A stretch of 64,000 nt of DNA from contig JAYWIR010000046.1 of assembly GCA_036172245.1 (NCBI GenBank), forward strand, positions 1,178,001 to 1,242,000. The letters run 5' to 3'. This document shows, piece after piece, positions 6,216 to 51,400 of this stretch. How positions within the stretch are numbered: position 1 is the stretch's first letter; the number at the start of each line of letters is the position of its first letter. Under the pieces are notes generated by a model. That model searched no databases, had not been told where the DNA came from, and saw only the letters and a list, made by a program, of their open reading frames with translations. Both the position numbers and the translations under genes were made by a program. This DNA is from Raillietiella orientalis (lineage: Eukaryota).

Positions 6216-6249
6216 GAATTGCATTTTCTTGTGACGCTTGTCGTTCATG

Positions 6250-11362: not shown

Positions 11363-11369
11363 AAAATAA

Positions 11370-13629: not shown

Positions 13630-14060
13630 ATACAAGTTGTAACGCGTTTTTTCTGTCTTTTGAAGCGCAATTCTGGATAAGCATATCTGAATCAGGAAAG
13701 TTAAGGAAATAAATTGACCACGCACACACCACACAAACACGACAGACTTCAAAGATGAATCCTCGAATTCGATAGACTATTAGACTCCTAATCTCACATG
13801 ACCAATCACAAAGTTTAGGAGACTGCTCTTCCGCGTCATGGTCCGCGAAGTAATCTACATGAAGCCTCCCAAGAGGGGAAACAGCTACCACTAAGGAGTG
13901 TGGCAGCCAGCAAAGTTCCGAGAAGGAAATGCATGTCCACGCGCGACCACGGAAGCAGATCGTAGGCAGCACTTCTGGGATGCCATCGCGTTCTTTTCGG
14001 CGCATCCCTCTTTTCGACTCGCGGAAAAGAATGGCACAGAGCGAGAGCTTTTCCTCGGCC
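13630..14060 (+). mobile_element. Copia RT fragment
   Basis: IDHAHT, TIRLLISH (~13776-13800), ETALPRHG, EVIYMKPPKRG (~13846-13878, EEIYMxQPEG-like), VWQPAK..RQHFWDAIAFF (ORF 13898-14173). Confidence 0.65.
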
Positions 14061-14064
14061 ACCA

Positions 14065-17000
14065 GCCGGCTCCCAGCCTCCGCAGCGCCAGCCTCCGCGG
14101 CGGGACGGAGGTTTCCACGCTGGAGAGAACAGACCTTCAGCTTGATTTCAAGAGACTGACCCTGCCAGCCTAGTACTAGACCATCCACTCCACCGGGTGC
14201 GTCCCGACACGTCTGATCGCCCGGGCCGCGGCCGCCTGCGGAAAACCAGCAACCCAGCTTTCTAACGCAACCTCCTGAACGTCTACGGCTCCCTCTCCGG
14301 CAAGTGGCCACCCTGCAAAAAGCACATTCATGGATCTTCTGTTGCCCCGCAAAAACAAATGCCTGGAGCCAGGAGACCGTTCCAACGTGGGCCGGGAGGA
14401 CGAGTCCCGCAAGAGAAGCCACGAACTGCCGGTAACACATCCGGAATGTCGGAAGAACCGCGGAGGCGGTGGGCTGTGAAGTCCGTCAGCCACCAGAGAC
14501 GTAGACGCGCCCTCCGCCTTCGAGATTCACGGCACCTCCTACCGGCTAAGCGGGAGTTTCCCTGCGAGATATCGGGTAGCAGGAAACCCCCAAGTAGCCG
14601 GACTGCGAGTCGGCGACCTCACGCCGCAACAACCTTGACCCTTCCCAGAGGACTTCTTCTCTGGGATCAACGCTTCGGCACCCCATCGGCGACGTCGAGC
14701 AGCTCTCGCCTCTCCCTCCGATGGCAGCGGCCGGCGCTGCTGACGTCTTGAACTCGCGTGCAGCGCGGCCGGCCAACACCGGACGAGAGGGAGCACCGGT
14801 CCCGCCTGCTCCAGCTGCGGAGAGAAGGACGCTTTCCCCGACCTGCTAGTGGCACGTGCTCCCCTGCAGGCACAACGGGAACGTTCCCCTGAGTCGCCCC
14901 CTTCCCCAGCGAACGACCCGGAAAGCTGCGCGAGGAACCTCTTTGCGCGCGCGGAGTCCCCGCAAGTCCGCAGCTGCCGCCTTTGCGGCGCCGTGCTGTC
15001 TGCGCGCAGTCTGTCCAAAAACGGCTCCGAGAGTCGACGACACGATAGAGGAGCCATCCTCTTCTCCATCCGCTTTTCTGAGCGGCTACCGAGAGGAGCT
15101 CGCCGGCATACCGCAAAGGGTGCACAGGATCGCAGACAGCGGGATGCGACCTTTCTCCCCCCCTCCTCCCCCGGTTCAGTTTTTCCGAAAAATTTCCCTT
15201 TCATGTTTTCTTTTTTCTTCCAGTCCCTCGACCTCTGCGTGATGTCGTGGGACCTCATCGACGCCCCCCAGTGGATGTTCGGACTGGGTGGGACGCGCAC
15301 TTCCTCCCACCCATTTCCCAGTCTGCTTCCCTTTCGCGTGAATAAAAAGAAAAAACGTTCCGGCGCCACCGGGCGAGGACGCTGATTATCCAGGAGAAAG
15401 GTGGGCGCCCGGCACCCACCGACAGCAGCGGTCACGCACGGACCGCATGCACCTGGGGCCTCAGACTCGCGTCCGGGCCGCGGGCACTCCCGGCACGCTC
15501 GTCACAGGGATGACCCTGGGTCGCCGAGCAATCCAGCTCCCCAGGGAAAATCCGCAACGACGAGCCCGCAAACGCACTCTGCACCAGGTCGCGGTGGAAT
15601 CGGAGGTCAAGAGAAAGGTCGGAGGAGGAAGGTCAGCCCATTGCCATCAGCCTGCACCGCCTCGTCTCTTGGCCTCCACCCAAGCGCCGCGGTAGCCGAC
15701 AACGGGCGGCAACCGCGAAAAGCACTGCGGAACGGCATCGAAAACAAACCGTGCCAGAAAGGACGCCGGGACACTCCCTTCGACGCTGCAGCCCACTTTC
15801 ATCCAGAGAGCCGGCACCACCGGTCGGGCTGGGCGCAAGTCCGAGGGGGGCTCGATAAGGCGACGAGAATGGTGGCTCGGGAGGCTCCTGGTTCCTGGAC
15901 ACACGTCCATCTTTAGGATGAGCGGGGACGTGCGGTTGGTTCCCTCTTCCCAGCCGGAGCAGAGGACGGAGAGGGCCACCCGGTGGTGCCTCGTAGACGG
16001 GATGCGCTCACAGGGTCCTTCGCTTACCGGAGGCACCCGAGCAAAGCGATCCGGGTGACTACTTGCGTGGGTGGGCGCCGCGACCGCAGCGCGCGCGCGA
16101 CACCGGGCGCCGCGGGTGCCGGCTAAAGGATCGACGCGCTGCGGGTGCCCAGTTGGCCCACCAGATGACGCTGAGGGGCTTCGCACGGTCATCGGGGCCA
16201 CGCCTGCGAGACCGAAAACTGGGAAAGCCGGTTTCGGGCCGCGCGCCCCCTGCGCATCTCGCATGCTTGTCAAAGGGGGGACTTATTGGAAAGCCACAGC
16301 CCTATCGAGCCTCCCCCATGCCCTTGGAGTCCGGGACGGGGCGGGGCGGCTCTCGGGAAGCGGAGACGAATGGAGGCCGAAGAAAAGGAAGCGGCAGGAA
16401 GGGCGTGGCGGGCGGCCGAAGGTGTCGCGCGGTCCTACGGAGCCTCGATTCCTCCAGGGGGAGGTCGGATGCAGCTCTGCCTGCTCGCACGGGACTCGCC
16501 GTCCCCGGCGAGCGCTCCCTGGGCGTGAACGGCTCCGCCCCTCTGGGTGACTGATTGCAGGCTCCACTTTCAGCGCCACCTGCATCGATGTCGGCGCTCC
16601 CTAGAGAAACCCGATAGCGCCTTGCGGGGAATTCGAGAGGACAGGTCGACGTCGCTCCGGTCTCCCACTTTTTCGGACGTGCCTCCTTTCTTTCCGAGGA
16701 GCGGCCCCTGTCCAGATGAAAACAGTCGCCGCGGCGCGCTTCGGACCGCACTGGGACCCCCTCATACACTCATCGCTCTACGGTCCATTAGCACGTCGGA
16801 GTCTTCACCGGAGTTTCCCGGACCAGCCTGCGGTTCCAAGTCAGGAACGCGTGGCTGCACAAGAAGCGGGACCGAAACCCACGAGCACCATCGGCGTCAC
16901 GGCGGTGAGCGATGACACTTCTGGTGCGCCAGGAGCCCTCGCTGCGCCGCCAAGTCACCAGACATGAAAGAGCGCCAGATTTGCGTAGGGACGGGGAGGC

Positions 17001-18300
17001 GCGCTGGAGTTGCCGCGCACCAGGAGCGCCTGTCAGCGCCGCCGCGATCACAGCACCCCTCGCTTGCCTCTCTGCGTCAGCCTGGAGATCACGCACGCCA
17101 AGCGAACACGACTTTTTCCCGCCTCCGGGATGCTCGAGGGGCGCATCCGCAGCAGGAATTGGCGCGGGGGGAGAGGCGACCGCCGCGCGGGCGGGAGCTG
17201 CGTCGGCGAAGAGCGCCAGGATCGCAGGGAACGCAGCGAAAGGGGGAATGCGGCGAGCGAAACGCGATGAGCAAGCGGGTGCCCGCGAATTGGAATTCCC
17301 CGATGGGCGTCGCTCTCTCCGCCGGGAGCTGTCGAGCAGCAGCTCTGGGGGAGGGAGCGAAGCGCCGCGTCCGCCCAGGATGCGCTGCTGCTCCGGACGG
17401 GGAGCACCCGACCCATCATCGCGGGAAGTCCCTCCGAGGAGTGGACCTTGCGTGGCCGCTCGATTGGTTGTGGGTCCAACTGTCCCCCTTGCGTGGCTGG
17501 GTGTCTTCCCTGCTCGCGGGCGGTCGCGCGAAGGAACGCCCGGGAAGAACGGCTGGGCGATCAGGAGACCTCTCTGGAGGGCTCCTCTGAGGACAGCGCC
17601 GTGGGGATAAGAAGGATCCATGTTCCCCAAGGCTGCTCCCGTGGGGATTGGGACTTTTCCGAGACTTGCACCGCCGCAGGAAGGAGGAGAAATTTGGGGT
17701 GGCGCCGGACGTACAAGACGAAAACCGCAACCGCGGCAGCAGTCCCCCTCTGCGAAGGGAAGCGCCCGCGGCGGCGAGGGCGCTCCTTCGTTCCCGCTCC
17801 CGCAAGGGACGAGCAGGGGACCCGGAAGCACGTCGCGCCGGGAGGGCGCGCACGCATCCCCGCTCTCAGGCGAGTCGCAAGCGGCGGCGCCAGCGTGCGA
17901 ACCCCCGCTTCTTCTTCCCGCGGGTCGTTCCTGGGTCTCACTCGAGGCGCTGTCGCCTCGTCCGTGGGGCACTGTGTGCGGCGCTTCCGTCGACGGAGTC
18001 GCTCGCGTGCGGCGAGAGGCAGGGAGTGGTCGCAAGGCGCGGGAGACATGCGTTGCCGTCGCGACGCGCGGCTGCCCGCTTGGACGTGGCGATCTCTTCC
18101 GGAGGGTACGGAGACGAGGTGACCTTCCAGAAAGGACGAACCCACCGTCGGGGAACGACTCAGATGACGCGGGTCGCACGCGCGTCCGGGCAGAAGGACT
18201 GCCGCGCGCTGGAAGGGCGCGGCGTCTTCGCAGCGCGCCTCGCCGTTTCCCTAGTACCGCGCGGGTTTGCAGGCGGAGGTCGGAGCCTCCTCGTCCTTGC
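14065..18300 (-). mobile_element. Degenerate copia gag-pol relic, RNase H truncated
   Basis: VDGSAAH (~17975-17995, protease-like), LGNM, HLDRGR (integrase-like), KPAFPVFG, IEPPS..LWMK, VVGYRGAWVEAKR (ORF 15647-16273), RLRARRCGFS, EEVRVPP..KVASRCLR..RRAP (ORF 14539-15435), YRQFVASL..FSAGGRGPGD..AEAG (5' part of ORF 13628-14440). Confidence 0.7.
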
Positions 18301-18999
18301 GGCCATCCCTTCTCGCTGCTCGCCGTCGCTGTGAGCCTCGCTCCGCACGATCGCCGAGATGCACGCGAGAAGGGGCGCTGCGCCGGCGACGCGCCTGTTT
18401 TCCCTGGCGAATCGGTCCAGCGCCGAGATGCGAGCGCGCGCCGCCTTCCTCTCCCGCTCCTCCTCCGTGCGTTTGCGTCCCTGTCCGTTTGCCGGAGGTC
18501 GCCTCCTCCCCGCTCCCGGGCGAGGTGCGCTCCCCCTTCGCCAGCGGAAGCGCCTCGCGTGGCTCGCACTCAGGATGCTGCGCGCCGCTCCCGCTCGCCG
18601 GCGGCTGCTGAAATGCCAGGAACGCGTCGCGAAAGTGTCAGCTGCATCATGCGAGGAATGCGGGAGAAAGCGTACCCGGGGAGCTGCAAGGGAAGGGCGG
18701 GGAAGGGGGGAGGGCGAGGCGCTGCTTCTCAATTTGTCTCTCTTGTGGCAGGTGCAGGTGCAGTCCATCCCGACGGTCGGTATGCCAGCAACCGGGGTTG
18801 TGCCCTTTCCAAGGGACCCACTCCACTGCGGAAGGGGGACTCTACCCTGCTACGGGCGCGGTGGCTTCAGGACCGGCGGCGAGCGTGAACCCCTGAGCGG
18901 ACGGCGCGGGAGACGCATGAAAACACGGTCCAAAGCTGGAGCCCACTGCACGGGATCGCAGCCTGCCCGGATACCTCCGGGATTAACAGCGCCTCCCGG

Positions 19000-21900
19000 T
19001 CTGCTGATATGCAGCAAGAAAACCGGCGAAGTGGGTTGCGAAAAAGGGGGAAATGAATCGTGCAAATCCTCAAAGGGCGACTTTTTTTTCCTTCCGGGAA
19101 GTCAGGGATGCACTTTGTGCAATAAGGTAGCGATGCTGGGTGCTGCGAGGCGGGAATTCCGCCCCCGAAATCCTTTGTTTGCTCGCTTCCAACTGCAGCG
19201 GGTGAGGAGCGAAATTCAATCTCTGCTCCTTGATCTCCCATCCGCATCTGCCTCGCGCGGAGGGGCGCGGACATGCGCCGATCCTCGCTGCGCGGACGAC
19301 GAAACGGGCTCCACCCCCCACCCTCCACCCCCTCTCCACTTTTCTCGGTCTGCAGGAAGAAATTCTCTCGGAAGAGGGTGAGGGTGGGCGCTGGGAGAAG
19401 AACCAGAAGCTGATGAGGGGACGATGCTCCAGAAGGACAAGACCGAGTCGGCCCGGTGCGTCCGTGGCGCGCATCTCTGGGCTGCGGGGTGCGACGTGGA
19501 GCTGCTCCCTCACAGCGCCGGGACCCTCGCTTCGCGGAATCTTCCGAATCCTGGATGCGCTTGGCTGTGTCCCCATGCCCGGATGGGAGGAATGCCTGCA
19601 CGGCCGCAGCGAAAAACCTACGCCCAGTCCCCGCTGCCTTCTCAGGGTGCCTGGCGACGCGCTTGGAAAGCGTGGCACCTGCGAGCGAGCAAAGCGAAAG
19701 ACACGGAGATGGTGCTCGAGGAAGCGCGATTGGGACTCCCCTGGAGAAGAGGACGCGCACGCGGATCCCGCACAAGAATGGGAGGAAGACCGCAATGTGG
19801 ACTGACTGCGAGCTCGGGAATCCGGCGTGCGGCGCCAGATCGCTCTGCGGGCGCACGAGGGTGGTTGCTGGGGCTTCATGCGCAACGGCAACCTGGATGC
19901 GAAAGCTCCCACGGCACCCTCTTCCTCTTCCCGCCGCTGCCGCAAGAGGAACGTCGTTCGCGGCGTTCGGACTGCCGCCGCGGTCTGCATGAGGCTGCCG
20001 GCCGTCTCGTCCGCTGCCTTTCTTGACGCTGCCAACGTCTTCCCGCTTCCGCTTGCGCGGAAGACGTCCTCGTCCTGGTGCTGCGGCCATCTCTGCATGG
20101 AGAGAAGTTTGGGATGCAGGCGGAAGATCCAGTGATGCCGCCTCAGCCATCTCGGCACGCAAAGGCCAGAGGATTCCGGAAGAGGGATTGCAGGACGGAA
20201 GTGCCCGGAGCGTCTCCACGCCCGGTCAATGGGTACGCGCCTACGCGAGAGGCTGCTGCCGAGGCGGAGGAAGTCTGCGCGATGGCGGTTGAGGAGCGTG
20301 GACCACGGTGTGGCGTGCCTCCGCCTTTGAATAGGCGCACGCCATTCGTGGGTACGCTGGCGTCCGTGCGGTGCCGCGTGGCAGCGGAATGCAAGCAGCA
20401 GGTCGCGCGTTGCGGAGCGGGGTGAACAGGTCGGGTGTGCGCGAAGCAGGAGAGCCCTCGCGGCTGCAAAGAGTCGATGCGACTGCCTCCGCCTGGAGCA
20501 TTCCGCTCGGCTGCAGGCGATGGTGGTCCCGGTCGTGCAAGGATGTCGGCAGCCTGGGACCGCAAGCGCGCTGCGCGGAATCAAGGAAGGAGGGTTTCGA
20601 GGGACACGGGCGAACGTTGGTAGAGGACCGGTCCCTCCAGTCGGGGACTCTCCTCTGCTCCCGACTGCTCCTGAGCTTGCGTCGGACCATGCAGTGGGGT
20701 CCACGAAAAGTTCATCTCCCGGGAGCTGCTGAGTGCGATGGAGGGTCATCCTGCCACCTACGCACGGAGGAACCTTGTGCTTTGCGAGGCCTGTGCTCGC
20801 CTTGCACGTTGAGAGTCCGCCTCCCTAGGTGGGTTTCTGCGCAAAATCGTAGGCCGCATTGAAATCCTCCGCGGTTGCCTGGGAGGCAGCGTGTGGAGGA
20901 GGCCCTTACAGCGAGATGGGCTCGGGATGAGTGCGTGCCTACAGGTATGCAGCGAGCGTGGAAGCACGGGGGAATCCCTCCCGCAGACTCTTGCGCGTCC
21001 GTTTCGGTCCTGGCTCCTTGCAAGCCGCGCGCATGCGCTGCGCGCTCGCACGGTCGCGCCTGCCGATTATCGACGCATCGGCCGAGTCGCTCGGACCGCT
21101 GGAAAGAAGTGGCATGCAGAGTATCTTCCTCGCAACGCTCGTCGCCCTCGAGATATCCGGGAAACGGGCATTCCCTTCGCGGATACCTATTTTGCAGGAG
21201 AAACGGGCAGCTGGTACTCGAGGATGGGCTACCGGCTGCCCACTGTGCGCCCGTTGCTTTCTCGCTCTCGGCGAGGACAGGAAGCGCTCGTGCCCCGCCT
21301 CCGGGGATGCGTGCGACTCCCACCCGAGGCAGCGAACAAGAGTGCCCACGAGGAGACTGGCCGCCCCATCTCACCATCGCATCCGTCCCGATCCGTAGCG
21401 GAGGTTTCCACGCTGCGCGCAGCCCGTGACGCATCCAAGGAGAATGCACGGACATTCCGCGGGAGATTCGTATGGCCTCGCCTGCGCTGAAGCACGAGGC
21501 CAGCACGGCGGGCATCTGAGCTCTTTGTTTTCTTTGGCAGCGCCGTCTCACGTTGCGGATGCACACGCAGGCTTGCCCGCGCGCCGACCGTGGCCGCTTC
21601 TTCCTTCTACCTGCGAGAGCAACGGAACTTGCCGAACGGGCACCATCCGTCTGGCTGTGGCCTACGCGAGAGGCGCGCGATGCTGGGAGGAAACGTGCGA
21701 GGGGAGCGGGCAGAGGCGGCAGTGGAAAGCACGTCGCTTCCTCCTCCCTTGCCAACTATCCTTGGAAGAAGTGTCCCCTCTCGAAGAGAGTCGGAGGAGA
21801 ACGGTTGGTGCGGCGGGCGCTGCGGTTAACGCGAGCAGGTTGCCTTCCGGAGCGGGTGGAAGAGCGCTGGTTGCGCGAACAGAAGAGGCCGCACGCGGTG

Positions 21901-22650
21901 AGAACCGTTGCGTCCGCCCTCTTCCTCCGTGTGAGCGAAGCGCGCGAGTCCGTTCTGTGTCCGGACGGGTCTAGGGGAGCGCAGTCGCTGCAGAAGGAAG
22001 GATCTCGTGATCCTGCTCGTATGCCCTCCGTCCATCCCGCAAGCAGGCGAGACGGGCTGAGTGAACGTCCGGACGGATCAACGCCGGATACAAGGGACAC
22101 GCGTGTTCCGTTAGCAACGCATGCCGCTTCCTGATTTCCTCAAGGGTGGGGGGCCATCTGCTGTCGAAAGCAGCACTCGTGCGAGCGGCCCGCAGGGGGG
22201 AACGGCGCTCCGAGGTTACTCAACGAGATCGCATCGCCCCACATGCACGGTGGGGCGATGCGATCTCGTTGAGAACTGGAGGTGGTCCTTTTCGAAGAAG
22301 AGAGCGTCGATGGGTTGCTTCCGGTTCCCTGTTGCCCGTTTCGGGCGTGCACTGCGATCTTGCGAAACGCGCCGATCACCTTTCCCACATTAAGAAATGG
22401 CCGCCCGTTGCTTTGGAGATCTTGCAGAGAAACGGATGCAAAGGCTTCATTCGCATGCGGCAGCTCCTCGTCATTCCTCATCCCTCGCCGCTGGTCATTT
22501 GATTTCAGCCCAAATCTGTCTGGTTTATCGTAGGGACCTTTTTTTCTCTTTCAGGGAACGGAAAAGGTCAGCAGCAATTGGATCGGCTGTTTCGCGATTG
22601 TTGGCCAGCAGCGGCTTTTCTCGTTTTTCCACGTCGTGTTCATCCGCCTG
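19000..22650 (+). mobile_element. Degenerate copia pol relic (integrase-RT-RNase H)
   Basis: HARMGG, LRAHEGGCWGFM, HGEKF, VPGASPRPVNGYA (ORF 20078-20425), SLPQ..RSWLL, YRRIGRVA, GIPFADTY..TVRPLLS (ORF 20891-21490), SYGLACAEAR, LAVAYA (ORF 21426-21974), ERPD, ERRSEVT..GDAIS. The 5' boundary is uncertain. Confidence 0.7.
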
Positions 22651-22829
22651 TCCGAGACCCATTTGCCCGTTCCCTCGGGTTGCGACGCAGCATCCCCCAG
22701 CGCTCGCTTTCCCCGCTCCCTCGCGGCTTACACGAAGCTTTCCGCATGCCTTCAGCTTCCTTTCGGCAGCACGTCGACGGCCACGATGGTTCCGTGGTTT
22801 CCGAATTGTCGAGCAAAAAAAAAAATCCT

Positions 22830-25800
22830 TGAACGCCTACGCCGGACATTAGCTTCAGCAAGGGCGTCCTTTCGCAATTGTCGGAGAGGATGACGAAGCT
22901 CCGTCTCCAGGAGAATTGGCTCGCACCGCGTACAGGAAGCAGTGGACGCGTCCTGCGCCTTTGCGCACACTGCGTGCTCAAGGCGCAGGCTGAATTGCAG
23001 CTGCCCGTTTTCCGCTTGTCTTGGTCCGGATGCAGGTGCTTCTCGGCTCGGATCGGTCAGGACAATGGTGTGTTGCCGGATAGAGAGAAAGAAGGTGAAG
23101 CTCCGGCTGGTGGGTGCGAAGGGGAGGCGCCCTTGATGTTCGCAGGTGGGAGGGAAGTTCGCGATTTTGATTCCTACTTTCGGAAGTCCGTTTTCCGGAA
23201 CGGAGGCTCCGAGGATGCGTTTCGACCCCCGTCGGCAGCTTCGTTTCCGCCAACATGAGCGCACCCCGCCGCCCCTATCGGCGGATGCTTCTCCATCCGT
23301 CCATGACTCGCCGTGCGGAACGGGGACGCGTCCGCGAATGCTGGCAGGGCAAATCCCACCGCAACGAAGAAATGCGGGAGGCGCAAGCACAGGTTGGGAC
23401 TCTACGGGAACGAACGGGAAGAGCGCGGGCGGCGTACCCATCTTCGAAGAGGGACGCGATGCCTGTTGCTGCCCGCAACTTGGATGGCTGCGGATAGATG
23501 GGAGTTCTGTTCCGCCCGTCCGTTGGATCGGACTGAAGCGAATGGTGCCAGCGAGACGGAATGTTGATGCGTGCAGCCTGTTCCTCGGAAGGCGGTTCTT
23601 TCGTGAGAAGGGACTGTGTCGCCGCACTGAAGATCTTGCCTCCCATCCTTCCATTCATCTCTTTTGTTTTTGTTTGGAGTGCACTTGCCGGTTTCTCGCT
23701 CCCGTTCCCATGGCACCCTTCTCTAGCGCCTTGTCAACATGCAGCTCTCTCGGCCGCCTCCCCTTGCGACAACGCTCGCAGGAGGGCGTCCCACTCTATC
23801 GTTTCTTTCTCGCTTCGATCCCATCGCATTGCTTGCGGGAAAGGCGCGTGCCTGGGGAAACGGGCGGGCGGCGCGACCAAGCTGATCCGCTTGCGACCTC
23901 ACTCACGCTGGCTCCGAAAGATGCATCGCGGCATCGCCAATATCCTCGGAGGTGTGTGCGGTGCTCAATAGCTCTCGTGTGACCTCGAAAGATTCGCGCG
24001 GCGACTGCTCTTCTTTGCAAAAGGGGAAGTCCGAAGCTCCGTCCATCTGCTCTCGATTCGCGTGTGGTCGTTTGGTGCCCGACGGAGGAGACCCAAGCCG
24101 GAGCTGAAAAGACGGATGGATGAGTTGCCTTCGCTCCGCTGAAGCTCCAGGCGGCTCTGGACGCGGAACGTGGGGCAGAGACTGCCGCTAGGAACACACT
24201 TCCCACGGGAACGAGCGACGACTTTCCTGCGATCGTTGCTGATCGACGCATCCCGATCGACGCACATGACGAGGGTGCAAGCTGGAGACGGCGACATCTC
24301 CCATTTCTGTCGGTGGAACGCCGCTTCTCCCTGGAACTGCTTCCTTCTTCGGTGGGAAGGGTTGACCCGGTCTAGGCCGGATTTTCTTCCGCTTCGGAAG
24401 CGCCCACTTGCACCACGGAGGCGAGTCATCTTTGCGTCAGTGCACCTGCGTCCCCCGTCCGCTTCCAGAAGCTGTGACTCTTTGCGAGCACGCGAGAGGG
24501 ATGGCAATAAGGTGAGGAAGGGGTTGGGGTCCCTTCGGAGTTCAGAGCCCGTGGTCCGCGAGCGATGCGTCTTTGCATCTCTCGTGGAACATTCATAGGT
24601 GGTCTCGCCGAGCAGCTGCAGGGTGAAGGTGAAGGTGGTCACCGGGAAAGCAGCTTTTACGCAAGGCGCGTCGGCGGGGGAGTCACTTGCAAGAAAGCGT
24701 AAGCGGGACCACTCGCATCCCGTAGTGGCGGCCGCTCTTTCTGCCAGAGTCGCCCGTCGCTCCCAGAGCAGCGCGCGGTGCTTGCGTATCCATGACCGCG
24801 TTCTGCTCGGAGACGCCTTCGTCATCCGCACTGCTTCCGCTTCCACCGCGCGGATCCTTTTCCGTGCGAACGTCTTCGCTTGCGGCGAGCGCGCTCCCGC
24901 AATGGCACCTGGTGCGCCGCGTCTTCCGAGCACGGCTGAGTTCCTGTCTTTAGGCGCGCCCACGGAACTGTTTCTGAGTTCCGAGCAGCTGCTAAAGAGC
25001 ACGTGCGCGCCGGAGACGCGAGTCGGATGCACTTTCACCGAAATCTCCGCTCGGATGCTTGGTATCCGGCGGAGCCTGCGAGGACCCTCCGGTCGCTGTT
25101 GTTGCGCTCTGCTTCGAACTTTCCTGCCTAGCTGATCGCTTCCTCGTTGATGGTCCCTCTTAATCAAATGATTGCGGTAATGGCAAAGCATCCGGATCGC
25201 CATTTTCCGCTCCAGACCCGCTGATCCTCTCTCTGCACGATTGGCCTGCTGGCCTGCACGCGGAGGCCTTCCATCCGTGCCGAACGTCGCAGTCTGCTTG
25301 CGCAGGCGACGCCGGGAACCTTCATGCTCCTCTTGCAGAGTGCTGCCAGCGCTTCGGTAACAGGTGCTCCCTCACGCCCCTGCCGTCGTTCTGCGCTTGC
25401 CCGTTGCCCGAGTCGCTGATGGAGACTGCCGGTCGATCGCCACCGGGGCGCGACAACTGGTCAGTCTTCCGTAGCGGAGAGGAAAGTGCGTGAGAGGGAG
25501 GGGAGGCGCGCTGGATGCTCTCGTGTCGTCACAAGTTCTCGATTTGGGATGAGGTTTCGTGGAGGAAGTGCGTCACTCCGGCCAAAAGGAGCGATCCAGA
25601 AAAGGTCGAGCGCTTACGTGAACGTGGTCAAAGCCCGCAGAGGATTCGCGGTGATGCTGCAAAAGATGCAGACGTGTATCGCAAGTTGCGATGCGCATCC
25701 GAAGTCACGCTGCCGCGAAACGGGGTCTCTCCATGTGGATGGTTGTGGCGAGAAGCTGCTCCGATGTCTTTCCGTGCGTGAGATCCTTCGACGTTCCTCG

Positions 25801-26110
25801 ACACGTCGGTCTTCTGCAGTCATCAATCCGCCACTGGCGAATGCAGTCGCGAAACGTCCGCAGCATACGATTCAGTGCATCCCCGTACTGCTCAGCTCAG
25901 CAGGTTGCGTTCTCCCCCTGCCGATTCACCGTGCATGTGTTGTGTTCCTCTGGGAACGCGCTCGCGAAGGGGTTCGACTCGGAAGTCCACGGGCCGCGAC
26001 GACAATGCGCGCGCATGCGTGCCGCGATGCACGTTGCCGCCACCGTTCCTCAGGACAGCAGCATGCGAAGAGACGCGAGCAAGCTCAGGTGAGCGAAGCG
26101 AAGGGAGCAG
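22830..26110 (+). mobile_element. Degenerate copia pol relic (integrase-RT-RNase H)
   Basis: CAHCVLKAQ..PVF, GGKFAILI, RWNAA..LPLRKRPL..VIF..LRAR..VFASLV (ORF 24170-24598), TGKAAFTQG (ORF 24599-25135, DVKTAFLxG-like), KRSSAYV..QKMQTCIAS..FLWERAREG..TMRAH (ORF 25486-26337). Confidence 0.7.
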
Positions 26111-26299
26111 TGGCTCGGAAAGCGTGGTCTGGCGCGTGTGCGGAAAGCGCACGAGCGCTTCCTAACAGGTGCCACCGCTCGTGGCAACGGAAGGAAAACA
26201 ACGTGCTTCTTCGGGAGATCCTTGAGAGCATCCCTGCGACGTGGGCGCAGCTCTGCCTTCGCATTTGCACGCCGACGGATTCGTTGGGAAAGTCATGCG

Positions 26300-35595: not shown

Positions 35596-35599
35596 CACT

Positions 35600-40500: not shown

Positions 40501-41900
40501 TTCGGTCTGGGGCCCGTATCTTCGGCCGTTTCCTAAGAAGCCGCAATCTTCGGGCAGCAGTCCTTCGGGGGATTTCATGGGGGGGGGAGGGGGGTCAGAT
40601 TGTGGATTTGGGGAAGGATGGACCACGGTGAGATGCAGCCAGAATATGACCGACCGCGCGTTTCGAGAGGCTGGCTTTCCCTTTTGCCTCGACCTTCCAA
40701 GGAGCCAGCCGGACTCTACGCCCACAAAGAACCGCCTTCCAGGGACATGTGTCACGTCTCGACAGCCTTCTTCATCTCAGATTTCGGCCTCAATGCTGCT
40801 CATCCGTGTGGCTGTTCCTCCAGTTACATCTTCCTTTTGGGATGAAGTTGTCTAAAGTTTCCCCTTGGAGCAGCGTATTCGTTCCAAAGGAGCTAAGTTT
40901 CCATTGGAAGGCGTGAAATCGGTAGCCATTGGGTGCGGTCCGGGACGCTGATGGACACTTTCAATGCAGTTCCTTTGCTTCCTCGCCGTTTGTTCCTTTC
41001 GTCACTTTGCTCCCAGGGTGCTCCCTGCCGAAGAATGCTGTCGGAGCAGTGCAGGGGCCATCCGGATCCAACTGCGGCTTCTTCCGTGTTCTGCTGTGGA
41101 CCAGCGAAGATTTCGTTGGGATCAGGGACCTCAGCATCCTCGAGAGTGGTGGTAACGTGAGATCATGCCCCGAAAACCGAGAGTGCCGGAGTGCCTTGGC
41201 CAGTCCTCATCAGGAAACCAACAACTTATCATACCGTCACACTCATTCAGGACCCGTGCTCTTTTCTCCTGCTCCGGGTCCAGCCTACCCTGCATCCTGC
41301 AGCGAGTGAAAGGAAGCAGCCATCGGTTCCCCGCAGCGAGCGATCGGACGAGCCGTTTGCTAACAACCGCAAGGTGCCATCACGAGGGATTCGGATCTCT
41401 TCGGGATGTTTGAACACGAGACGGTCGTTGTTGGCAGGACGGAGTTTCCTTCCGGAGAGGAGCGCGCGCACGGACTTCTCGGATTCACCCGAGCAGCTCC
41501 CGGCTTCAAAGAGAAGGGAGGAAGGAATTTGACCGATCCTCAAATGGAAGACGAAAACTGGCAGCTCGAGGCGATGTTGGCGAGAAGGACTCTTCGATTG
41601 CATCTCTTCGAAAAAGCACCTTGGAAAGTACCACATTTGTTTTTTGTTTTTTTGCTGTGGTTGCTGCTGACGCCGCTTGGGGTTTTCTTTCCTGCATTAG
41701 CACTTTTGGCTGCACTCGAAGCGGAATCATACGCTGCAACGATGGACGAAGCACGTCCATCGTTGCATCGAAAGAACGGGCGTTTTCCCTCTTCGAGCAG
41801 GCAGCGCCAAGGTCGGTTCACGCAGTGCAAAGCCACGCAAGCAGAGGAGGAGGAAATCCGCTGGTAGATGACGTCAGCTTCACCGGAACAAAATGACAAT
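37590..41900 (-). mobile_element. Degenerate copia gag-pol relic
   Basis: KCGTFQGAFSKRC (knuckle-like), FWLHLTVVHPS (WHxRLGHPS-like), TCGQL..GRKWTLF..PYTPDRV..AEPN (ORF 39851-40546), RFSPISSIAAV (ORF 39283-39660), DQRSS, EGGNPG..ENL..TR..LIREW (ORF 37604-37903), minus-strand purine tract ggggaaaga at ~37593-37601. Confidence 0.7.
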
Positions 41901-42199
41901 TTTACGCATGAAAAAAGGCGTCGAAGGCGCCGAAACGGACTCACTCCGACGGAGACGAGGATGACATGGACCGCCTGATGACGAATGCGAAAACGCCTGT
42001 TTCTGTTCCACCTTTCATTTTTTCTGCGTGCACGAGCTGCCTCGGGCTCCGTGCACCGTGCACGCAGCAGTTTGAAACCAGGAAGAATCCACGAACTCAG
42101 GGGAAACTCAAGTGTCTGTCTCTGACGGATGCAGCTTCCCAGAAGAGTGCTAAGACATCAATAGTCCTCTCGGGTTACACGCCCGGCGGAGGCGAGGTC

Positions 42200-45100
42200 T
42201 TCGGAATTTCAGTCTCTTGAAAGCATATCTCTTGAAAACGGTCTTTTAAGCCCGGAGCAGCCGGCCAATAGCTGCTCGAATGTCTGCGAGGTTGCGGAAG
42301 CGTTCGTCGTCGAGCAAGGTTCCGCTGCAGCGTCGAAGCGGACTGGCGAGTGCCATCCGAATCGGAGCTCCTTGACGGGAGCAGATGCACGGAGTGGTGA
42401 CTGCAGTCTCTCATCGGCTCACTTGTCCAGTGCAGCTTTCCTGAAGCCCTTCTGCAGTCCACCTTTCCCGATGCAAAGGACTCGCGTGGTGGGCTGAACC
42501 CGGCGTTCGAACGAGGGCTGACCTGTGTGGGAAGAACCCCTCCTTCCTCTTGAACCACTGTAAACTGATGTTCCGCCGCCCGGTTCTCGCTGGTGCAGAT
42601 CGCGGTCCCTACCTCCGACTTTGTTCCTGGTGGATCTTCACGGGAAAGTTTCCTCATGTGCTCAGCGCGCGCGCGCTCGTGAGGATTGGATCGCTCTGTC
42701 GAGAGGATTCAACGAGTTCAGAGCATCAGCAGCAGCCGCCTTCGCTTCGAGTAGCGAGAAGAGTCTGTGCTGGGTCACCGCAGGCTTCCGGTTCGTAGAT
42801 CGCTTCTGCAGGTCGCGTACCAGCAGACTAAGGGCGGGATTCATCGGTTCTCTCCGCGCGTTCCTGGAAATGCTTCCAGCTCGAGAAAGGGGTTCCGCTC
42901 CCGATGGTTTCGGTGGTCCCGGTGCGATGCCTTCCATGAGGACAAAGCTCCTTTACACGCGTCCCAGAACCGTCTCCTGCTTTCCGTCCAGCTGGATCGG
43001 TGCATCTTTCGTGCAGGCATCAGCTCGTCACCTCGAGCACGTTGCCACGAGCAACGACCGCGTCAAGCTGCAAGGAATGCCTGTTTCTTGCTCCCCTGGT
43101 GCAGCAGAATCCAGTGTTGTGCGGCGAGACGCGTCTTTGGTGAGCGACCACCTCGGGACTGGTGCGCCGTGCACATCCCAGCCGCGAGCGGAACGCGCAA
43201 CCGAGGAGGATGGCTGAGCGTTCCCGGTGCACTTCAAAGCGGCGACCGCCTGACGTCCTTTCCAGGAGATCGGATTTCGATCTTCGAGTCCTGAGCACTC
43301 TCTGCGGACGCCGAAGAAGGACCCCAGGCTGGGCACAGAATGCATTGTGCCATCGAATCGCAGAAATCGCCATCTGTCCTCGGAGCAAGAAAGCCAAGGA
43401 GGCGGCGAGGACTGCCACTTCCAAGCTGCGAAAACGGGGATGGGAGGGGCGACTTTCCGTGATCGAGTGAAGCAAAGAGACTGCCGTTCGCCGTTTGACG
43501 CCGGCGAACCGGCGTCCAGGTTGCACTTTTCCGGAATTTTTCACAACCGCACCACCTGACCATCGAAATACCGGCAGGTCACTGCTTCGCCAGCGCACTT
43601 GTGGAAACCCAAACCGGGAGACGGAAAGGTCAGCGCCGTCAGAGCCGCAGCCGTGCTGGATGCCGTGCAGGCGTAGCCCCATTCAGGAGAAGTCACAATC
43701 CGCTCGTCTACAAGGCCATGCGAAGGGCGCACTGCTGGGGACGCTGCACCCGGCGTATCGCAACGCCGAAGAATGAGCTCGGAGAAGTAGAACTGCCTGC
43801 CTGCGTCTGGGCTGCCGCACTCGCTGCTCTCTGCGGAAGATTCTGGAGAGTTCCAGCATGAGCCAGTGGGCGGAGCTCAACCCTTGCTGCAAGGGAGGGC
43901 ACTCCCTGAGGAATGCAATTGGTGGTGGTCGGAAGTAGGGTGGAAAGGTGGAAAGTGGTGAAAAGTATCCTGCGAGATCTCAGGCAGAAGGACGGAGATA
44001 AAGTGGTTGGACCATGGAGCCGTTGGCAAATGCTACGATTCCTAATGCCCTTCCACGAGGACTTGAACGTTGGAACGAGCTGCTCGACGTTCCTAACGAA
44101 GAGCCGAAGTGCCTGCAGTGTTCATGGACGACAGCACCCTCCACCTGAAGTGGCGGAAGTCGGTGCTTCTGGTTTTCGCTGCCACGCTCGCGCCCATCAC
44201 CGGACACTGGGGAATTCCAACTAGCAGTAATCACGCCTCAGATGACTTCCCAGGCTTTGATGTTGCCCGTGAGCAAAGCTGGGGAGTGTGAACTTGGACC
44301 GCTGCAGGTACGGGGAACGAGAGACCCTTCCGCACCTGCTTGTAAGCGTTGTTGCCCTCCGTCCCCTGTGGCAACGTGTTGGAACGACCTTGCCGACTCC
44401 GGTTGGCAACCCCAGGGACTTCGTTCGACTCCCTTTTGTGCGGGATGTCTTACCGCCGGCCACAGCCTCTTTGCTGCATCCGCGAGATTGTGGCGGCCTG
44501 GAGCGGAGCCGGCAGAGGACCAGACGAAAAGAGGCTATGCAGCTGGCATTTCGCTTGCTAAGGATAGCAGCCAGATGTCTTCACCTGGGCACCATGCAGA
44601 TGGAACTTGCGGGCACCCTGGGGAGGATGCTGAAGACTCCCTGTAGCGGACGGTGATCTCTTCCCGGCCCTCCAGAGTGTTTTTATTTATTTATTTCTTC
44701 TTTTATGCCTTTTTTTTGTTGCTTCCCCTTCCCTGCGCTGCCGAGATGAGCCTCGTCGGTCTGCGTACCGGCAAACTGGCAGGGTTCCTGTTGACTGGAG
44801 CACGGTGGAACTTCCTGTCTCACCACAGGTTGCAAGTTCACTAACCGCCCAAAGGATGGACACTTAACGGTGTCCCCTTCGGATTCTCGTGGTGACCTGG
44901 TTCGCTCTCGTCCCTCATCGGAATGGACAAAATTACTGGGCCGCCCGAATCCTGGAACTCCTTTGGGCGACCTGGCGAAACGCTCTTGCGCCAGGCGTAC
45001 GCGGGGACGATGAAGACGTGCTCGGTTCGTTGGAATCTGGTCGGCGCAGGAGAAAAAGGGCACTCCATCGACCAACGGTGCTTCGAATCCCTGGAGACGC

Positions 45101-45610
45101 TGCAGAGTCGAAGCGCCCGCTCTAGCAAGCAGAGGCGTTGGCTAAGCGAGCAGCAAGCAGCTGGTGGCTGCTCGCTCACCATGGTGCAGAGCCCGCGCTC
45201 CAGGATTCCTCAACGTCGGGGAATCAGCGACCCGATTATCGGACATGGAAGGTTCCCTCGTGCACGGAGGGGTTGCGGAAGAGAAGCAGCGAGCAATTAG
45301 CATCATAACAGGAGATGTCGCCTGCCGTAATTGAAGCATTCAGTCAACGTGTCCCAGAAAGTTTTTTCATCAGCTGGAATTTGAATGGAGGAAGACGACA
45401 TCGAGGAGTCTGTCCCGGGAGGCAGGATCGATACTCTGGGAATCAATGATCCCATTGTCTCGTTGTCAAGCGCTCCTGCTGCGCTCCCCTGTTCCTCACG
45501 TGGAAATGTTTTTTTTTCTCCCCAGACGCAAGCGAAGGTCAGTGGATTCCTGCCTGGTGAGCACCGCACAAGGCAAAGTTGGGAGGGAAGACTTCCTCGC
45601 TGAAGGGAGA
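42200..45610 (+). mobile_element. Degenerate copia pol relic
   Basis: VDLHG..FVDRFCR..PDGFGG (ORF 42621-43217, integrase-like), MLRFLM..STFL..VHGRQHPP (ORF 43913-44224), QALML..KAGEC, EEDD; purine tract tgaagggagag at ~45601-45611. Confidence 0.55.
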
Positions 45611-48600
45611 GTCCGTCCAGCTGCGGCTCGTTTGCGGAAGGCTGCACGGATTGCGCAAGCATGTCGGCGGTCACCATCTCAGTGGACGAGGGAGCCCATT
45701 TCACCAGCTCGTTCCCGGCGTCCAGGTACTGCATTAGTGCTGCTGCAGGAATTCCGTCGGCCACGTAGGAAGCTCCAAACGCAGTTTCTCACTCTGAGCT
45801 CGGTGTTCCCTTGGAGATGCCACTGCGTGCAACGCAAATGCCAGTGGTTGCGGTGGCAACTGCATTTCTTCAAAACGAAGACGAGCAGGCTGTCTGAGCG
45901 ATGACCTTCTTGGCGGACATCGTCACCGTCTTCTCGGATCAGCTGAACGGTCCTGCCGAAATCCAAATCCAACTGCTCCCACGCGGAAGCGCGTGGAGCT
46001 TCGTCCCGGCTTCTTGCTTGACTGCGACCTGTGCGTCGCAGTGAAGGAAATCCACTGAGCGCCCACCGCTTCCCATTTGTCAGGGATGAGGCCCCTTCTC
46101 ATTCCGCTGGGTCGAGTCGAGGGAGCTCCGGAGCACGGCGCTCTCGAAGGAAGAAGGTTGGAGGAGGAATCACAGCATCGTCTCGATTGCATGCGGGCCG
46201 GAAGGTGAGCGGCACTTCTTACGCCTCCCCTGGGTCAGAGCGGAGCCCTTTCGTGCTGATGCCACCGATCGACGAGGGTGACCTGCTCTTGTCGGAAGGG
46301 GCGAAGGTGTCGGAAGCACGGCGCACGCTGCGACAGTGGAAGGCGTTCCCCTGGGATGAAGAAGGGCTATCTGCGCCGTCCTGCACTCACCTGGAAGGGG
46401 GAACCGAAGGCGAGGGAGTCTCTGTCTTGCCAAGGATCTCGGGTCCTTCAGCAGGAGAGACGGCATCCGGGAAGAGCTCAAAGGGAAGTCGCGACATCTG
46501 CGGCCGTAGCGCACACGCATCTTCGTGCGGATCCCCTTCATACGATTTCGGAGGCCGATCGGGAAGATGAAACAGGGAATTCTCCGGAAATGTGCGTGGG
46601 AAGGGGATGCCGACGGGAAGAAAGAGCGGTCGCTTCTCAAGGTCGCAAGCGCGAGGGCGCGCAAGCAGCCGTTGTGATGGAATCCGGGACGGGAACGTCG
46701 AATTGCCCGTCCGGCGATCCTGCTGTGCGGAAATGCTGCAGCGACGCGTGGCGGCGGGAAAGGGGCTCGAATCACCCGGAGAAGAGAGCCGGGCCGCAAA
46801 GCGTAGGAGCGAACGGGAAGGATGCGGGAAGACGAGACGGAAGGGACGCTTCGATCGGGGATGCGGCAGACCCAGATGGGGCACGGCGAGAGACTCCCCG
46901 AGCTGGTGACCCTTCCGCTCCGCGGGGAGGGCGGGAGCTCGGCGGGCTCGCATCCCGTGAGACGGGTTTCCGGAGGAAAACGAATGGTGCACGCGCCGGC
47001 CTTCCCGGTCGCGACCAGAAGCGGCTTCCGGTCGCTTAGCCGAGGCGCTACCGCGTGCTCTTGGAAGGAAGCCGCCCTTTGCTGGTTGCCTTGGGAGCGT
47101 TGACGACCGGCAGGATGCTGCGCACGACTCTGGCCCCCGTCTCGCACGCGGGAGCGGCTCTCTCAGGAACGAGGTTCCGGGGCGCGCTGCTGGACGGGTG
47201 GTCGTCTCTCGGCCACACCCACCCTCAGGCGAGAGATTCGCCACTACCGTTCCTTCCTCTTCTTGGAGAAAGGGAAGAAACGCTGGTGCGGCACCTTCCG
47301 CCTGTGCGCCAGGCAGCTGGCTGGAAGACAGGATCTCCCCGTCGCCGTTTCGTACGGCCCGCGTGGTCTTCGTGACTCGTGGCGCTGCGGCCGGCGTCGC
47401 TTCCTCCGCGATGGGTAACCTTCAGGTCGACTCTGGCGGATCCTCTGCAGCGCGCGCTGCTCATGGCGAACACCCCTTTCCCCTCCCTCCCCGAGCGCGC
47501 GGATGGTGCCGCATGCTGGAATCTCGCGCGCGCCGGATGCTGTGCAACGCCAGGCAGGGTGCTCTCCTGGCCCGGTTGTTTCCTGGTGCGAAGTAGCCGC
47601 GACATGTTGGGCCGCGCACGAGACGCAGCCTCCCACATTTTCTTGTCGCTCAGAGCTTCGGTGCGCCTGCCGACACGCTGCCGGTGTCGCCTGTCGGAGT
47701 GCCTCTCGCGTGGAGCGACGAATTTTGCAGCTCGTGTTCGGGAGTGGGGCCTCCGGGAAAAGTCCGGAACGGCCGTGCCGCGCCTGGCATAAAGCTGGAA
47801 GCTATCGCTGGGCGCGTGGTGGTCGGTTCCGTGGGGTGCGCTGGCGACACCGAGGTGCAAAAATTCTGGCTTGCCATTCGGGTAGGATGTCGCGCCGTTT
47901 GTGCAACCACCGTCTGGTGCTGCGGTTCGTAAAGGTGGGACCCCGGCGAACGTTCCCAGCCTCTGGATGTGGGCCGGTTACGAAAGAAAGAGTATCCGTG
48001 TTTTTGCTCGGAGGAAGCATTCGGTCCGGACGGTGCTCACCTCTACGACCGGTCCCTGTGGCAAGAACCATGAAGTTTTTTTCTGAAAAACAAAGAGTTC
48101 GATAGGAAGCTGGATGGCGATGCACGGCGCTGCTGCACCAACTCTTCAAGAGCATGCTCGGGATCCCGACGAAGGCGGCTGGGTAACAGCACCAAGTAGC
48201 GTGGACGGCACCCGAGTCGCCTCATGGAGGAAGCACGGAGAGAGACGTGGATGAGCTCCAAGACGCCGTCCACGCTTCCTCATTCCTGGGTTCGTCGCGG
48301 CTTGATCTACGGTCAGGTTGGGCGCGCCTTTGGCCTCGATCCGCAGTCAATTCGTCCGCCCTCACGGTCATCACTCCCAGCAGTCAATCGCAGGGACAAG
48401 TGGAAGCAGCACGCTTTGGCGTCCTTGTGATCCTGCTTCCTGAGTACAGGGAAGGTAGAAAATAGCAAAGGGGGGTACCACCCCATGTAGAATTTTTGGA
48501 TGGAGCTGACCATGCTGACGCTTCGGAGAATGTTGACGGGAGGGTATTGGGCGCACTCCGGAGAGAGACGGTGCGCGCGCGTGTCACTCCGGAGCAGCGA

Positions 48601-51400
48601 CCTCCCTCCGAGGTGATGGCAGTATCCCTTGAGGGAGCGAAGATCACCGAAGCACCGATCTCGCGCGCGGCGAGAAATCTGCGGGGAATCGGAAGTGGGA
48701 GCGAATGGGGGAGGCCCTCGACAGGCAGGTCGTAGAATACAACGTCGCAGATTTCACTGACTGAGACCTCCTTCCATCGGCGGAGCCGGCTTTCGTGTCC
48801 TGCAAGTCGAGGTGATGGTTACGATGGCAACAGGTGGCGAAGTGCGAAGAAGATGCTGTCTCCATGAGAGCGCTAAGTGGGCGGTTCTGTCTCGGGGTTG
48901 ATGAAACGATGGGTGAGCAACTGTGACGAGAATCGCGGAACGGTGGGAACTCGTGCGGGCGAGGGACGTGAAAAAGGTCGGGTCGTTTGTCCCTGCGCAG
49001 CAACTGCTGCTGCCGGCGCGGGGACATGAGCGGATGAACGAGAGTACCTATCAAATCTGCTCCACCCATTCTCGGATGCGTTTAGCTGGAATTCGTGTCA
49101 TTATCGATATACGTCAGTACACATACGCATGTATATGCATTTGCACATTCACTCATGCTGCGTATTTGTACGCGAGCTATATTTGCTTGTGTGTATGTGT
49201 GACGCGTGTGGACCATGCGCGTCCTCGTGTCAGCGACGGATTTAAATTGGGTTGTGATGCGCGAAGGAGACAGGAAACGAAGGACGGTTGCAAGGTGCGA
49301 TGATGGTCCGATGCTTTCTTGTCAACACCTGCAACACTTTATCTCAATCTGCGAGCTTTTCTGCCTGTGCTCTTTCGCCTATGTTGGGACGGTGGACCGG
49401 TGGCTTTGGTGTGCTTGCGTGCGTTGCTGGAAGGGCGCACTCGAATGTTGCCACCGCGGTAGGGTGCGTTTCCGTAGCACCGTCCCTGCTGCGGTCGAAC
49501 ACGGCGTGCACTGGCATGCGTTTGCGTTTTCCTGGACTCTTGTTCCAGGCCCTATGCGTTCCCGAATTGTGTGATGCCTTCACCCAGGGTGGGGGCCTCA
49601 TCTGGCGAATTTTGTGACTGAAGAAGCATTCAGACATCTCTGCCAAGTAAGATGCCTCGCGATTTTGTTACCAAAGCAGAGGGAATTTTGTTTAATTTAT
49701 TTGCATCCTCCTTCAAATTGAGCAGGAGGATGTGCCGGGAGCTCATCTCAGCGCATGCATATGAGAGTTTTCCGATTGCTGCAGGATTATTGCTGCTGTA
49801 ATACAACGTCCAGTTGAAATGAGAGCATGCTGCTGTATGGAGTCTAGCTGTATAAGTTTCGCTCCCAGCGTAGTTTCCTTCCGAAGATGGCTGGAAAACA
49901 GGATGCGGTAGTTGGAATAGTGACCCCGTCAAGTGTGCAATGAGTGCTGACTTCGTGCTTCTGGATTTCCATTCATGATTACTGCAATTGTGTTGCTGTT
50001 TTTCATCCAGGAAAATATAATATTAGGCGGAAGTGCTCTGAACGGTATGTTGGTTTTCTGTACTGGTTTTCTTGGGTATCTAATGTGAAATTCCATTTTC
50101 CACTTCCGTCAAGAGATCTTGAGTATAAAATGGGAATCTTCGTGAGTTGAATTTGTCATCATTTTCAGCTCATGTGGAAAATGTAGCATATTAGGAAAGA
50201 GTGTGCATGGCAGATTTATTTTTTTTGTGTGCAGATCGCAGGGTATGTACATAAAGAAATAAATCTTTCTTTGGTCGTTCATTTTATTGCTATATTTATT
50301 TAGATGTGAACTTTTATTTTTGTTCTAATGGAATGTTGTCGCAGTTTGTTTTCTGGTTCAATGATATGTATTGAGGGACCAGAACTACAGATGACTAGGG
50401 GTGTTTTCATTTTTCAGTGAATTGAGGAAAATGAGTTTGAAAACTGAATGCTTAGGATTTGTCGAAACGAAAATTAAATGGTGCCTTGGCATAAATGTAA
50501 TGAAAATAATTTATTTGAAATAAGAATACTGCTATGTTTATAATGGAAGAAATTCGTGCTGGGATTTTTTGCATTATATAGTATTTAACAATTTGCATTC
50601 AAGAAGTAGAATGGATTGCCGAATACAACGGAAAGACTTTTCCGTTTTCAAATCATTTTTTAATAAAATATCAATTTGTCTTCTGCGTGTGTTTTAGAAA
50701 TCTGTCTCAGTTTACTTAGAGAATTTTCAGTGTAAAGACTTTTGCTTGTGAACATTTCGTTCTGTTTAGAACTTATTTTAAGCCGTCGGTATGGAGAACA
50801 TTATATAACGGCTTGATAATTTTTCATTAACGTGGAAACTATTTACATTGAAATGATTCAATGATTTTCTATCATTTATGCAACGTTACTAATAAAATGT
50901 TTCTATAAAGGGTTTCGCTTTAATTGCAACGTGAAGAGTAATTTCACAAAAAACAAACTTAAAAAGCTTAAAAATGGAACCTAAAGTAGCTGCACTTTTT
51001 CATTATAATTGTCGGAAATTTACCATATGGTGCGGCTCTTCAACAACCTTTGCCTTATCTCTTCGAAGTCCTGCCTTTTTGATAGCATTGAAAGTTTTTA
51101 TTTTGGTGCATGAGGAATTTCCTTTTCATCGGCTTCTGAGGAAACAGACTCGAAAAGACTTTTAGAAAAATGTGATTGAGCCAGTCGAGGTATCTTGGGA
51201 GATCAGCGTGTTGGTGCTGAATTCCCGGATCCAAAGTGAAATAAATGAACGCTCGGAGGATCTGAAACTTAACAATAATTGCCACACACCAAAATGTTCA
51301 TTTGCATTAACGGTACTAAGAAAGCGGCGATCAAAATTCCGCTTCCAATTAACTAGTCAGATCATCTCTATAACAGTTCATTATATAAATATCTCCGTGA
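45610..51400 (-). mobile_element. Degenerate near-full-length copia gag-pol relic (duplicate of 57090-62800)
   Basis: VICSSGPSIHI (~50365-50397, protease-like), SVADTRTR, STPRQNR..LMETA (ORF 48644-49069), RKQDHKDAKACCF, HLGVASAPHG (ORF 47225-47860), SLLRFAA..PGDSS..SYEGD..DAVS (ORF 46387-47244), IREDG, VKWAPSSTEMVTADMLAQ (ORF 45303-45764). Confidence 0.75.

Follow-up and report, generated by a model that had tools for sequence, protein, structure and literature searches.

What keeps a gene-free stretch of about 36 kb richer in G+C and in CpG than the DNA on either side of it, and from what was it made? The question is raised by the 64,000-nucleotide stretch of Raillietiella orientalis contig JAYWIR010000046.1 that we analysed (positions 1,178,001 to 1,242,000; hereafter the window, numbered from its first letter), which contains a GC-rich block at 13900-49600. 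A sequence-only reading had taken this block for dead transposable elements (TEs) that were enriched in GC and CpG, once inserted, as a consequence of where on the chromosome they lie. Our analysis reveals a genuine, homogeneous domain that is GC- and CpG-rich, gene-free and poor in repeats, in a setting that resembles a eukaryotic gene desert. The reading that we prefer, tentatively and without giving it even odds, is that the block is old neutral non-coding DNA under a domain-wide substitution regime favouring G/C, interrupted by separate AT-rich pieces. A long-acting, context-independent regime, either GC-biased gene conversion (gBGC) or a regional mutation bias, would favour G/C across the domain, and the step-bordered AT-rich stretches would be separate, probably younger pieces that have not yet equilibrated.

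Composition of the block and its borders

The block 13900-49600 has a GC content of 61.4% and a CpG observed/expected ratio (o/e) of 1.06, which places it above both base thresholds for CpG islands (GC > 50%, CpG o/e > 0.6). GC in 1-kb windows within it ranges from 54.0% to 69.2%. These values bear out what the sequence-only reading said of the block's composition, as does the 60-mer at 17161, in which 50 of 60 positions are G or C. The AT-richer flanks that it reported are also real, with 42.5% GC over 1-13899 and 47.4% over 49601-64000. A two-state hidden Markov model (HMM), which separates GC-type from AT-type DNA, and a Jensen-Shannon segmentation yield the following classes and segments.

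GC-type class: GC 59-62%, CpG o/e 1.05-1.13, TG+CA o/e 0.90-1.05, TpA o/e ~0.30
AT-type class: GC 37-41%, CpG o/e 0.62-1.04, TG+CA o/e 1.12-1.19, TpA o/e 0.56-0.62
1-7516: AT-type segment (HMM), 37.0% GC, CpG o/e 0.62, TG+CA o/e 1.19, without coding signal
8944-11522: AT-type spacer between the arms of an inverted repeat (HMM), 37.7% GC, CpG o/e 0.80
13356-13817: AT-type island of 462 bp between two GC-type segments, 36.6% GC, step-like borders
13818-49607, no strand assigned: GC-type block (HMM), 30,862 + 4,887 bp around a 41-bp A-rich blip
14047-22257: richer sub-domain of the block, 65.4% GC (Jensen-Shannon, G>45)
22258-49033: homogeneous sub-domain of the block, 60.3% GC, 26.8 kb without a further significant change-point (Jensen-Shannon)
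49608-52982: AT-type segment at the right border of the block, 41.1% GC

As delimited by the HMM, the block has ~60-62% GC, a CpG o/e of 1.05-1.06 and a TpA o/e of 0.30-0.36. It is internally homogeneous: the stringent Jensen-Shannon segmentation gives just two domains in 35 kb, and the neighbours of these domains have 33.6-50.3% GC. The interval 14047-49033 is thus a long homogeneous stretch unlike its neighbours, as an isochore would be. To the right of the block, 100-bp windows near 50.0-51.0 kb (within 49608-52982) drop to 23-35% GC, and beyond 53 kb the composition is intermediate; segment 55858-58719 has a CpG o/e of 0.87 and a TG+CA o/e of 1.21. GC-state DNA makes up 43,814 of the 64,000 bases of the window.

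At five of the eight HMM boundaries, GC changes by 0.18-0.28 within ±150 bp, and such step-like borders fit junctions of separate pieces better than a regional gradient. They support the main rival to our preferred reading, a mosaic in which GC-type DNA represents either one old piece or what a GC-rich genome normally has as non-coding background, AT-type segments are later AT-rich insertions, and GC differences follow origin and not position. We consider this possible though doubtful. It agrees with the majority share of GC-state DNA, with the different dinucleotide signatures of the two types (TpA o/e 0.30 versus 0.57-0.62) and with the left arm of the inverted repeat, which keeps 59.5% GC amid DNA of 37-38% GC. 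The AT-type segments, however, have no mutual similarity by blastn, and a search of the AT-island edges for terminal inverted repeats (TIRs) or target-site duplications returned chance-like short matches only, none of them convincing. TE domains are likewise missing from the AT-type DNA searched. No Pfam family was found in the six read-through frames of the left flank 1-7502 (stops were written as X before every read-through search), and the 150 open reading frames (ORFs) of 56-144 aa in the flanks gave four chance-level matches (E ~4e-3 to 5e-3), all far below the Pfam cut-offs. Moreover, a mosaic alone leaves unexplained the drift of two duplicate copies toward their local GC.

The duplicated sequence and the direction of its divergence

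These two copies form the only old duplicate in the window, with one member in the block and the other outside it.

45597-45966, plus strand: GC-richer copy, 57.8% GC, CpG o/e 0.95, period-3 peak 4.4, stops in every frame
57072-57441, plus strand: AT-richer copy, outside the block in a segment of 46% GC, 50.3% GC, CpG o/e 0.70, period-3 peak 4.9, stops in every frame

The copies align by blastn with 71% identity over 389 columns, and their local alignment score of 143 was reached by none of 200 shuffles (10.2 ± 1.5). The sequence-only reading had paired 57110-57210 with 45640-45735; the homology is real, and the excess of G/C that it saw in the 45-kb copy is present there as well (17 differences, against 6 in the reverse direction). 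The core alignment columns comprise 275 identical positions, 48 with a strong base (S; G or C) in the 45-kb copy opposite a weak base (W; A or T) in the 57-kb copy, 18 of the reverse kind, 11 S/S or W/W differences and 61 gapped columns. The 48:18 asymmetry, which is unpolarised, has a binomial p of 2.9e-4. Each copy's GC tracks its neighbourhood: the adjoining 1-kb stretches have 55.7/63.7% GC for the 45-kb copy and 44.2/47.0% for the 57-kb copy. We infer that this asymmetry postdates the duplication and reflects a position-dependent bias; the change may have taken place in either copy.

The ancestor of the duplicate was probably coding, and the copies are now dead and have diverged neutrally. 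Their period-3 peaks are the strongest two in the window, where the 99.9th percentile of the null is 3.0. Because these peaks occur together with stops in every frame, with indels whose lengths are not divisible by three and with an even distribution of mismatches across the codon phases (10/8/8 and 9/5/5), we regard the copies as formerly coding, now neutral relics. A two-sequence profile of the minus frame found no match at E<=1e-3 among 1.84 billion representative proteins. For the plus frame without shared stops, none of 4,168 longer-protein candidates matched at E<=0.01, a word-indexed search that amounts to weak evidence. A 26-mer conserved in both copies had no match in a metagenome scan. 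The minus frame also had some resemblance to the C-terminal end of a Ty1/copia polyprotein; this candidate was rejected, both the profile search and the Pfam read-through being blank.

A second pair that had been offered as evidence of divergence, 7030-7518 and its mirror 13012-13400, turns out to be unrelated DNA on the outer sides of the inverted repeat.

7519-8831, plus strand: left arm of the inverted repeat, GC-type, 59.5% GC, between AT-type segments
11700-13011, minus strand: right arm, 99.4% identical to the left over 1313 nt (blastn)

The arms differ by seven substitutions and one indel and enclose an AT-rich spacer of 2.87 kb. Their identity ends abruptly at all four ends, with no extension inward or outward. 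The local alignment score between 7030-7518 and 13012-13400 is 11, compared with 10.5 ± 1.3 for shuffled sequences, 86 of 200 of which reach it. Since these stretches are unrelated DNA beyond the outer ends of the arms, their GC contents (40.1% and 62.0%) are uninformative about the divergence of copies. The inverted repeat itself could be a young inverted duplication, a pair of conversion-homogenised arms or an assembly problem. The proposal that composition is set by position therefore keeps the valid duplicate, whose GC follows locality, and loses its other pair; the step-like borders also speak against it.

The differences within the duplicate indicate what kind of bias could be at work. 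Those with S in the 45-kb copy consist of 38 transitions and 10 transversions, the reverse ones of 12 and 6. A C of the 45-kb copy stands opposite a T of the 57-kb copy at 10 of 57 CA, 11 of 49 CC, 11 of 60 CG and 6 of 53 CT sites. This excess is spread over all contexts and hence fits neither a CpG-centred deamination of methyl-cytosine nor a CpA-centred repeat-induced point mutation (RIP). A context-independent S/W asymmetry is as expected from gBGC or a general regional mutation bias. Protection of the block from deamination, which had been suggested as a cause of its richness, is not favoured by so even a distribution. The block bears no deamination footprint, with a CpG o/e of 1.05-1.13 and a TG+CA o/e of 0.90-1.05.

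The opposite direction of change also has to be weighed, namely that the block retains the ancestral composition and that G/C was lost from the flanks and the 57-kb copy, through deamination linked to methylation or through a process like RIP. Segment 1-7516 (CpG o/e 0.62, TG+CA o/e 1.19) and segment 55858-58719 (0.87 and 1.21) are consistent with such decay. So are the lower CpG o/e of the 57-kb copy (0.70 versus 0.95), the nine columns in which CpG of the 45-kb copy is aligned to TG/CA of the 57-kb copy against one of the reverse kind, and the share of transitions among the S/W differences (38 of 48). The RIP indices, however, are negative in every segment: TpA/ApT is 0.31-0.71 and (CpA+TpG)/(ApC+GpT) is 1.07-1.47. 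RIP is indicated by values > 0.89 and < 1.03, respectively, and even the AT-type segments, with 0.70-0.71 and 1.30-1.47, lie outside these limits. Of the four clear AT-type segments, three are hardly or not at all depleted in CpG (o/e 0.80, 1.04 and 0.99), and for this reason a contrast between methylated and unmethylated DNA is not the main axis. Furthermore, neither the CpG nor the CpA sites of the duplicate carry an excess of C/T differences, and the CpG density suggests that loss of CpG alone could not lower 61% GC to 37%. Decay toward AT is accordingly quite improbable as the general explanation.

The block holds one further relic, which gives a small hint about the direction of substitution.

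44213-44280, minus strand: 5' fragment resembling U4 small nuclear RNA (snRNA) (Rfam RF00015, E-value scan)

Its score of 39.1 bits (E = 2.4e-5 over the window) falls short of the gathering score, 46. About 66 nt of the 5' part are aligned and 71 model positions are missing. We classify it as a truncated U4-like relic and not a functional gene. In the cmscan match line, pairing in the 5' stem is kept through two-sided changes.

Several observations weigh against a domain-wide regime favouring G/C. The informative duplicate is a single, unpolarised case, and S->W changes in a decaying 57-kb copy would give the same counts. Its second ungapped block (45828-45908) is balanced, with five differences in each direction, as are the seven substitutions between the inverted-repeat arms, of which four have G/C in the right arm and three in the left. 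The U4-like fragment does lean toward the regime, with five W->S, one S->W and one W<->W change at the conserved (capital) positions of the Rfam consensus, but this 5:1 count is too small for significance and is measured against the Rfam consensus, from which the host's ancestral U4 may differ. The steps at five of eight borders and the persistence of the 462-bp AT island sit more easily with a mosaic whose pieces differ in native composition than with a regional process. Finally, given the extent of GC-state DNA, the block may represent nothing more than the usual background in a GC-rich genome. A more specific proposal, a "GC island" held in a gene-free region by intense, sharply bounded gBGC (a stable recombination hot domain) that drives every neutral relic, be it a dead coding fragment or an snRNA pseudogene, W->S whatever the sequence context, appears unlikely.

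Transposable elements, coding content and origin

According to the sequence-only reading, the block is a TE graveyard that became rich in GC and CpG only once the elements had inserted, either through intense local gBGC or because it was shielded from deamination. The asymmetry of the duplicate is as this account predicts (48:18 overall and 17:6 in the sub-interval), the copies are dead and, judging from their period-3 peaks, probably once coding, and the block's CpG o/e is ~1.06. No TE protein domain was found, however, either in long ORFs or in the six frames of the block. Pfam returned no family for the 134 stop-to-stop ORFs of >=145 aa in the whole window (E<=1e-3), for the six read-through frames of 13801-25802, 25701-37702 and 37601-45302 or the plus frames of 46301-49800 (E<=0.01), for the minus frames of 45301-49802 (E<=0.05) or for the plus frames of 45202-46403 (E<=1).

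Repeats give the same picture. There are no pairs resembling long terminal repeats (LTRs) or TIRs inside the block, and no direct or inverted pair of >=60 nt apart from the member of the 45-kb/57-kb duplicate, a 390-bp repeat that only touches the block. Comparison of the 64 kb with itself yields two repeat pairs only, even at word size 7 with +1/-1 scoring, and a protein-level self-comparison of 1,149 ORF fragments reveals no further similarity. Beyond these, a sensitive blastn search detects no more than three short palindromes (~50-58 nt). Palindromes observed in the window include a near-perfect one at 51678-51739 (30-nt arms, 87% complementary, 2-nt loop) and a 56-nt self-complementary stretch at 22219-22273 (93%). 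Tandem repeats are limited to two tiny ones in the window.

Against a TE graveyard also stand the lack of relatives of the repeated piece and of the longest block ORF in the protein searches run, the non-homology of the second supporting pair, and the C/T differences, which are not concentrated at CpG (11/60, versus 10/57, 11/49 and 6/53 in the other contexts). The "dead TEs" label is an assumption that failed every test run, and we regard a TE graveyard as distinctly unlikely; the source material of the block has decayed beyond recognition.

No protein-coding signal is detectable in the 64-kb window by ORF nulls or Pfam. Codon periodicity (Fourier period-3 power) is at the null level across the window (mean 1.07 versus 1.01), and every long ORF has similar values of GC1, GC2 and GC3. 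The block has 107 ORFs of >=145 aa and 14 of >=300 aa, the longest being 593 aa, and a second-order Markov (Markov-2) null gives 114 ± 6, 12.2 ± 2.7 and a maximum of 570 ± 123. An apparent excess over a Markov-1 null (107 versus 73 ± 8) vanishes under the Markov-2 null, and none of the flank ORFs beats the latter. The many long spurious ORFs of the block arise because stop-codon trinucleotides are rare and TpA o/e is ~0.30: measured relative to the dinucleotide expectation, TGA/TCA (o/e 0.71) and TAA/TTA (0.73) are, on both strands, the most depleted of the 64 trinucleotides in 13818-49607. The most enriched there are GGA/TCC (1.35) and GTA/TAC (1.34). The 593-aa ORF has no relative among 8,000 candidates scored. 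No tRNA was found in the window, and no Rfam family reaches the gathering threshold there. The appropriate annotation for the block is a non-coding, GC-rich compositional domain, and neither TE relics nor a set of long ORFs.

A foreign origin (bacterial, viral or plasmid DNA, or a recent horizontal transfer) or an assembly chimera would account for the strong GC contrast with the flanks and the sharp borders. It would also agree with the absence of relatives in the protein search with the longest ORF and in a blastn search of 14000-21999, which had no match in 72,556 plasmids. The block nevertheless does not show the dense ORFs, codon-position GC bias and known families by which a prokaryotic, phage or plasmid insert would be recognised. 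It lacks the coding density and codon periodicity expected of prokaryotic or viral DNA, and PHROGs, like Pfam, returned no family (PHROGs for 47 long ORFs, of which the block contributes 43). Along the window there are six alternations between GC-type and AT-type DNA. Trinucleotide o/e profiles correlate with r = 0.92 between the halves of the block and with r = 0.57-0.74 between AT-type and GC-type DNA, the comparison being confined to this window. Because the diverged duplicate joins the block to the right flank, the two types alternate and a higher-order trinucleotide signature is common to both, block and flanks probably belong to the same genome, and a foreign or artefactual block is very improbable. 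The inverted repeat also links GC-type DNA across AT-type DNA.

Comparison with known domains and minor features

Across eukaryotes, gBGC is established to increase the GC of recombining DNA (PMC5635611, PMC2292697), and a position-dependent drift of neutral copies is already known from studies of isochores and gBGC (PMC5635611, PMC2292697). Like the isochores and gBGC domains of vertebrates, yeasts and other eukaryotes, the block is homogeneous, GC-rich and tens of kilobases long, and the copies of a neutral duplicate have diverged toward their local GC independently of context. Unlike isochores, it has borders that step within ~150-300 bp and are not gradual, its CpG o/e is ~1 throughout, and it is without genes, in contrast to the high gene content of classical GC-rich isochores.

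CpG islands and unmethylated domains offer a second comparison. The block shares with them a GC content above 50%, a CpG o/e of ~1.06 and the lack of a TG/CA excess, the last being indirect evidence on methylation, and part of the flank is CpG-depleted with such an excess. Typical CpG islands, however, are at least ten times shorter than the 36 kb of the block, which is attached to no detectable gene. In some filamentous fungi, AT-rich RIP isochores alternate with GC-equilibrated blocks. AT-rich and GC-rich blocks alternate here too, with sharp borders; unlike in those fungi, the RIP indices are negative, the GC-type blocks are without genes and the AT-type ones show no repeat-family similarity. 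The block resembles graveyards of nested, degraded TEs in being a long gene-free stretch that contains a dead duplicate, once coding, and a truncated relic similar to an snRNA. The block differs from them in having no TE protein domains or terminal repeats and almost no internal repetition.

If the copies indeed drift to local GC, the locus shows a position-dependent substitution bias on unconstrained DNA, and no setting would allow gBGC to be told apart more cleanly from mutation bias and from methylation effects. Were the block a "GC island" maintained by gBGC, it would be a natural laboratory for this process on neutral DNA in a lineage without a prior description. Even then, the drift would be another instance of a known phenomenon. 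At present a single 390-bp duplicate carries the evidence, isochore studies have made the phenomenon familiar, and the value of the analysis is mainly corrective.

Lastly, we note the 41-bp tract at 44680-44720 (14.6% GC), A-rich on the minus strand, which is the sole AT-state blip inside the block. No counterpart of it was seen near the 57-kb copy. On the minus strand, the tract lies ~880 bp downstream of the 45-kb copy and ~400 bp upstream of the U4-like fragment, and it resembles a degraded poly(A)-type tail.

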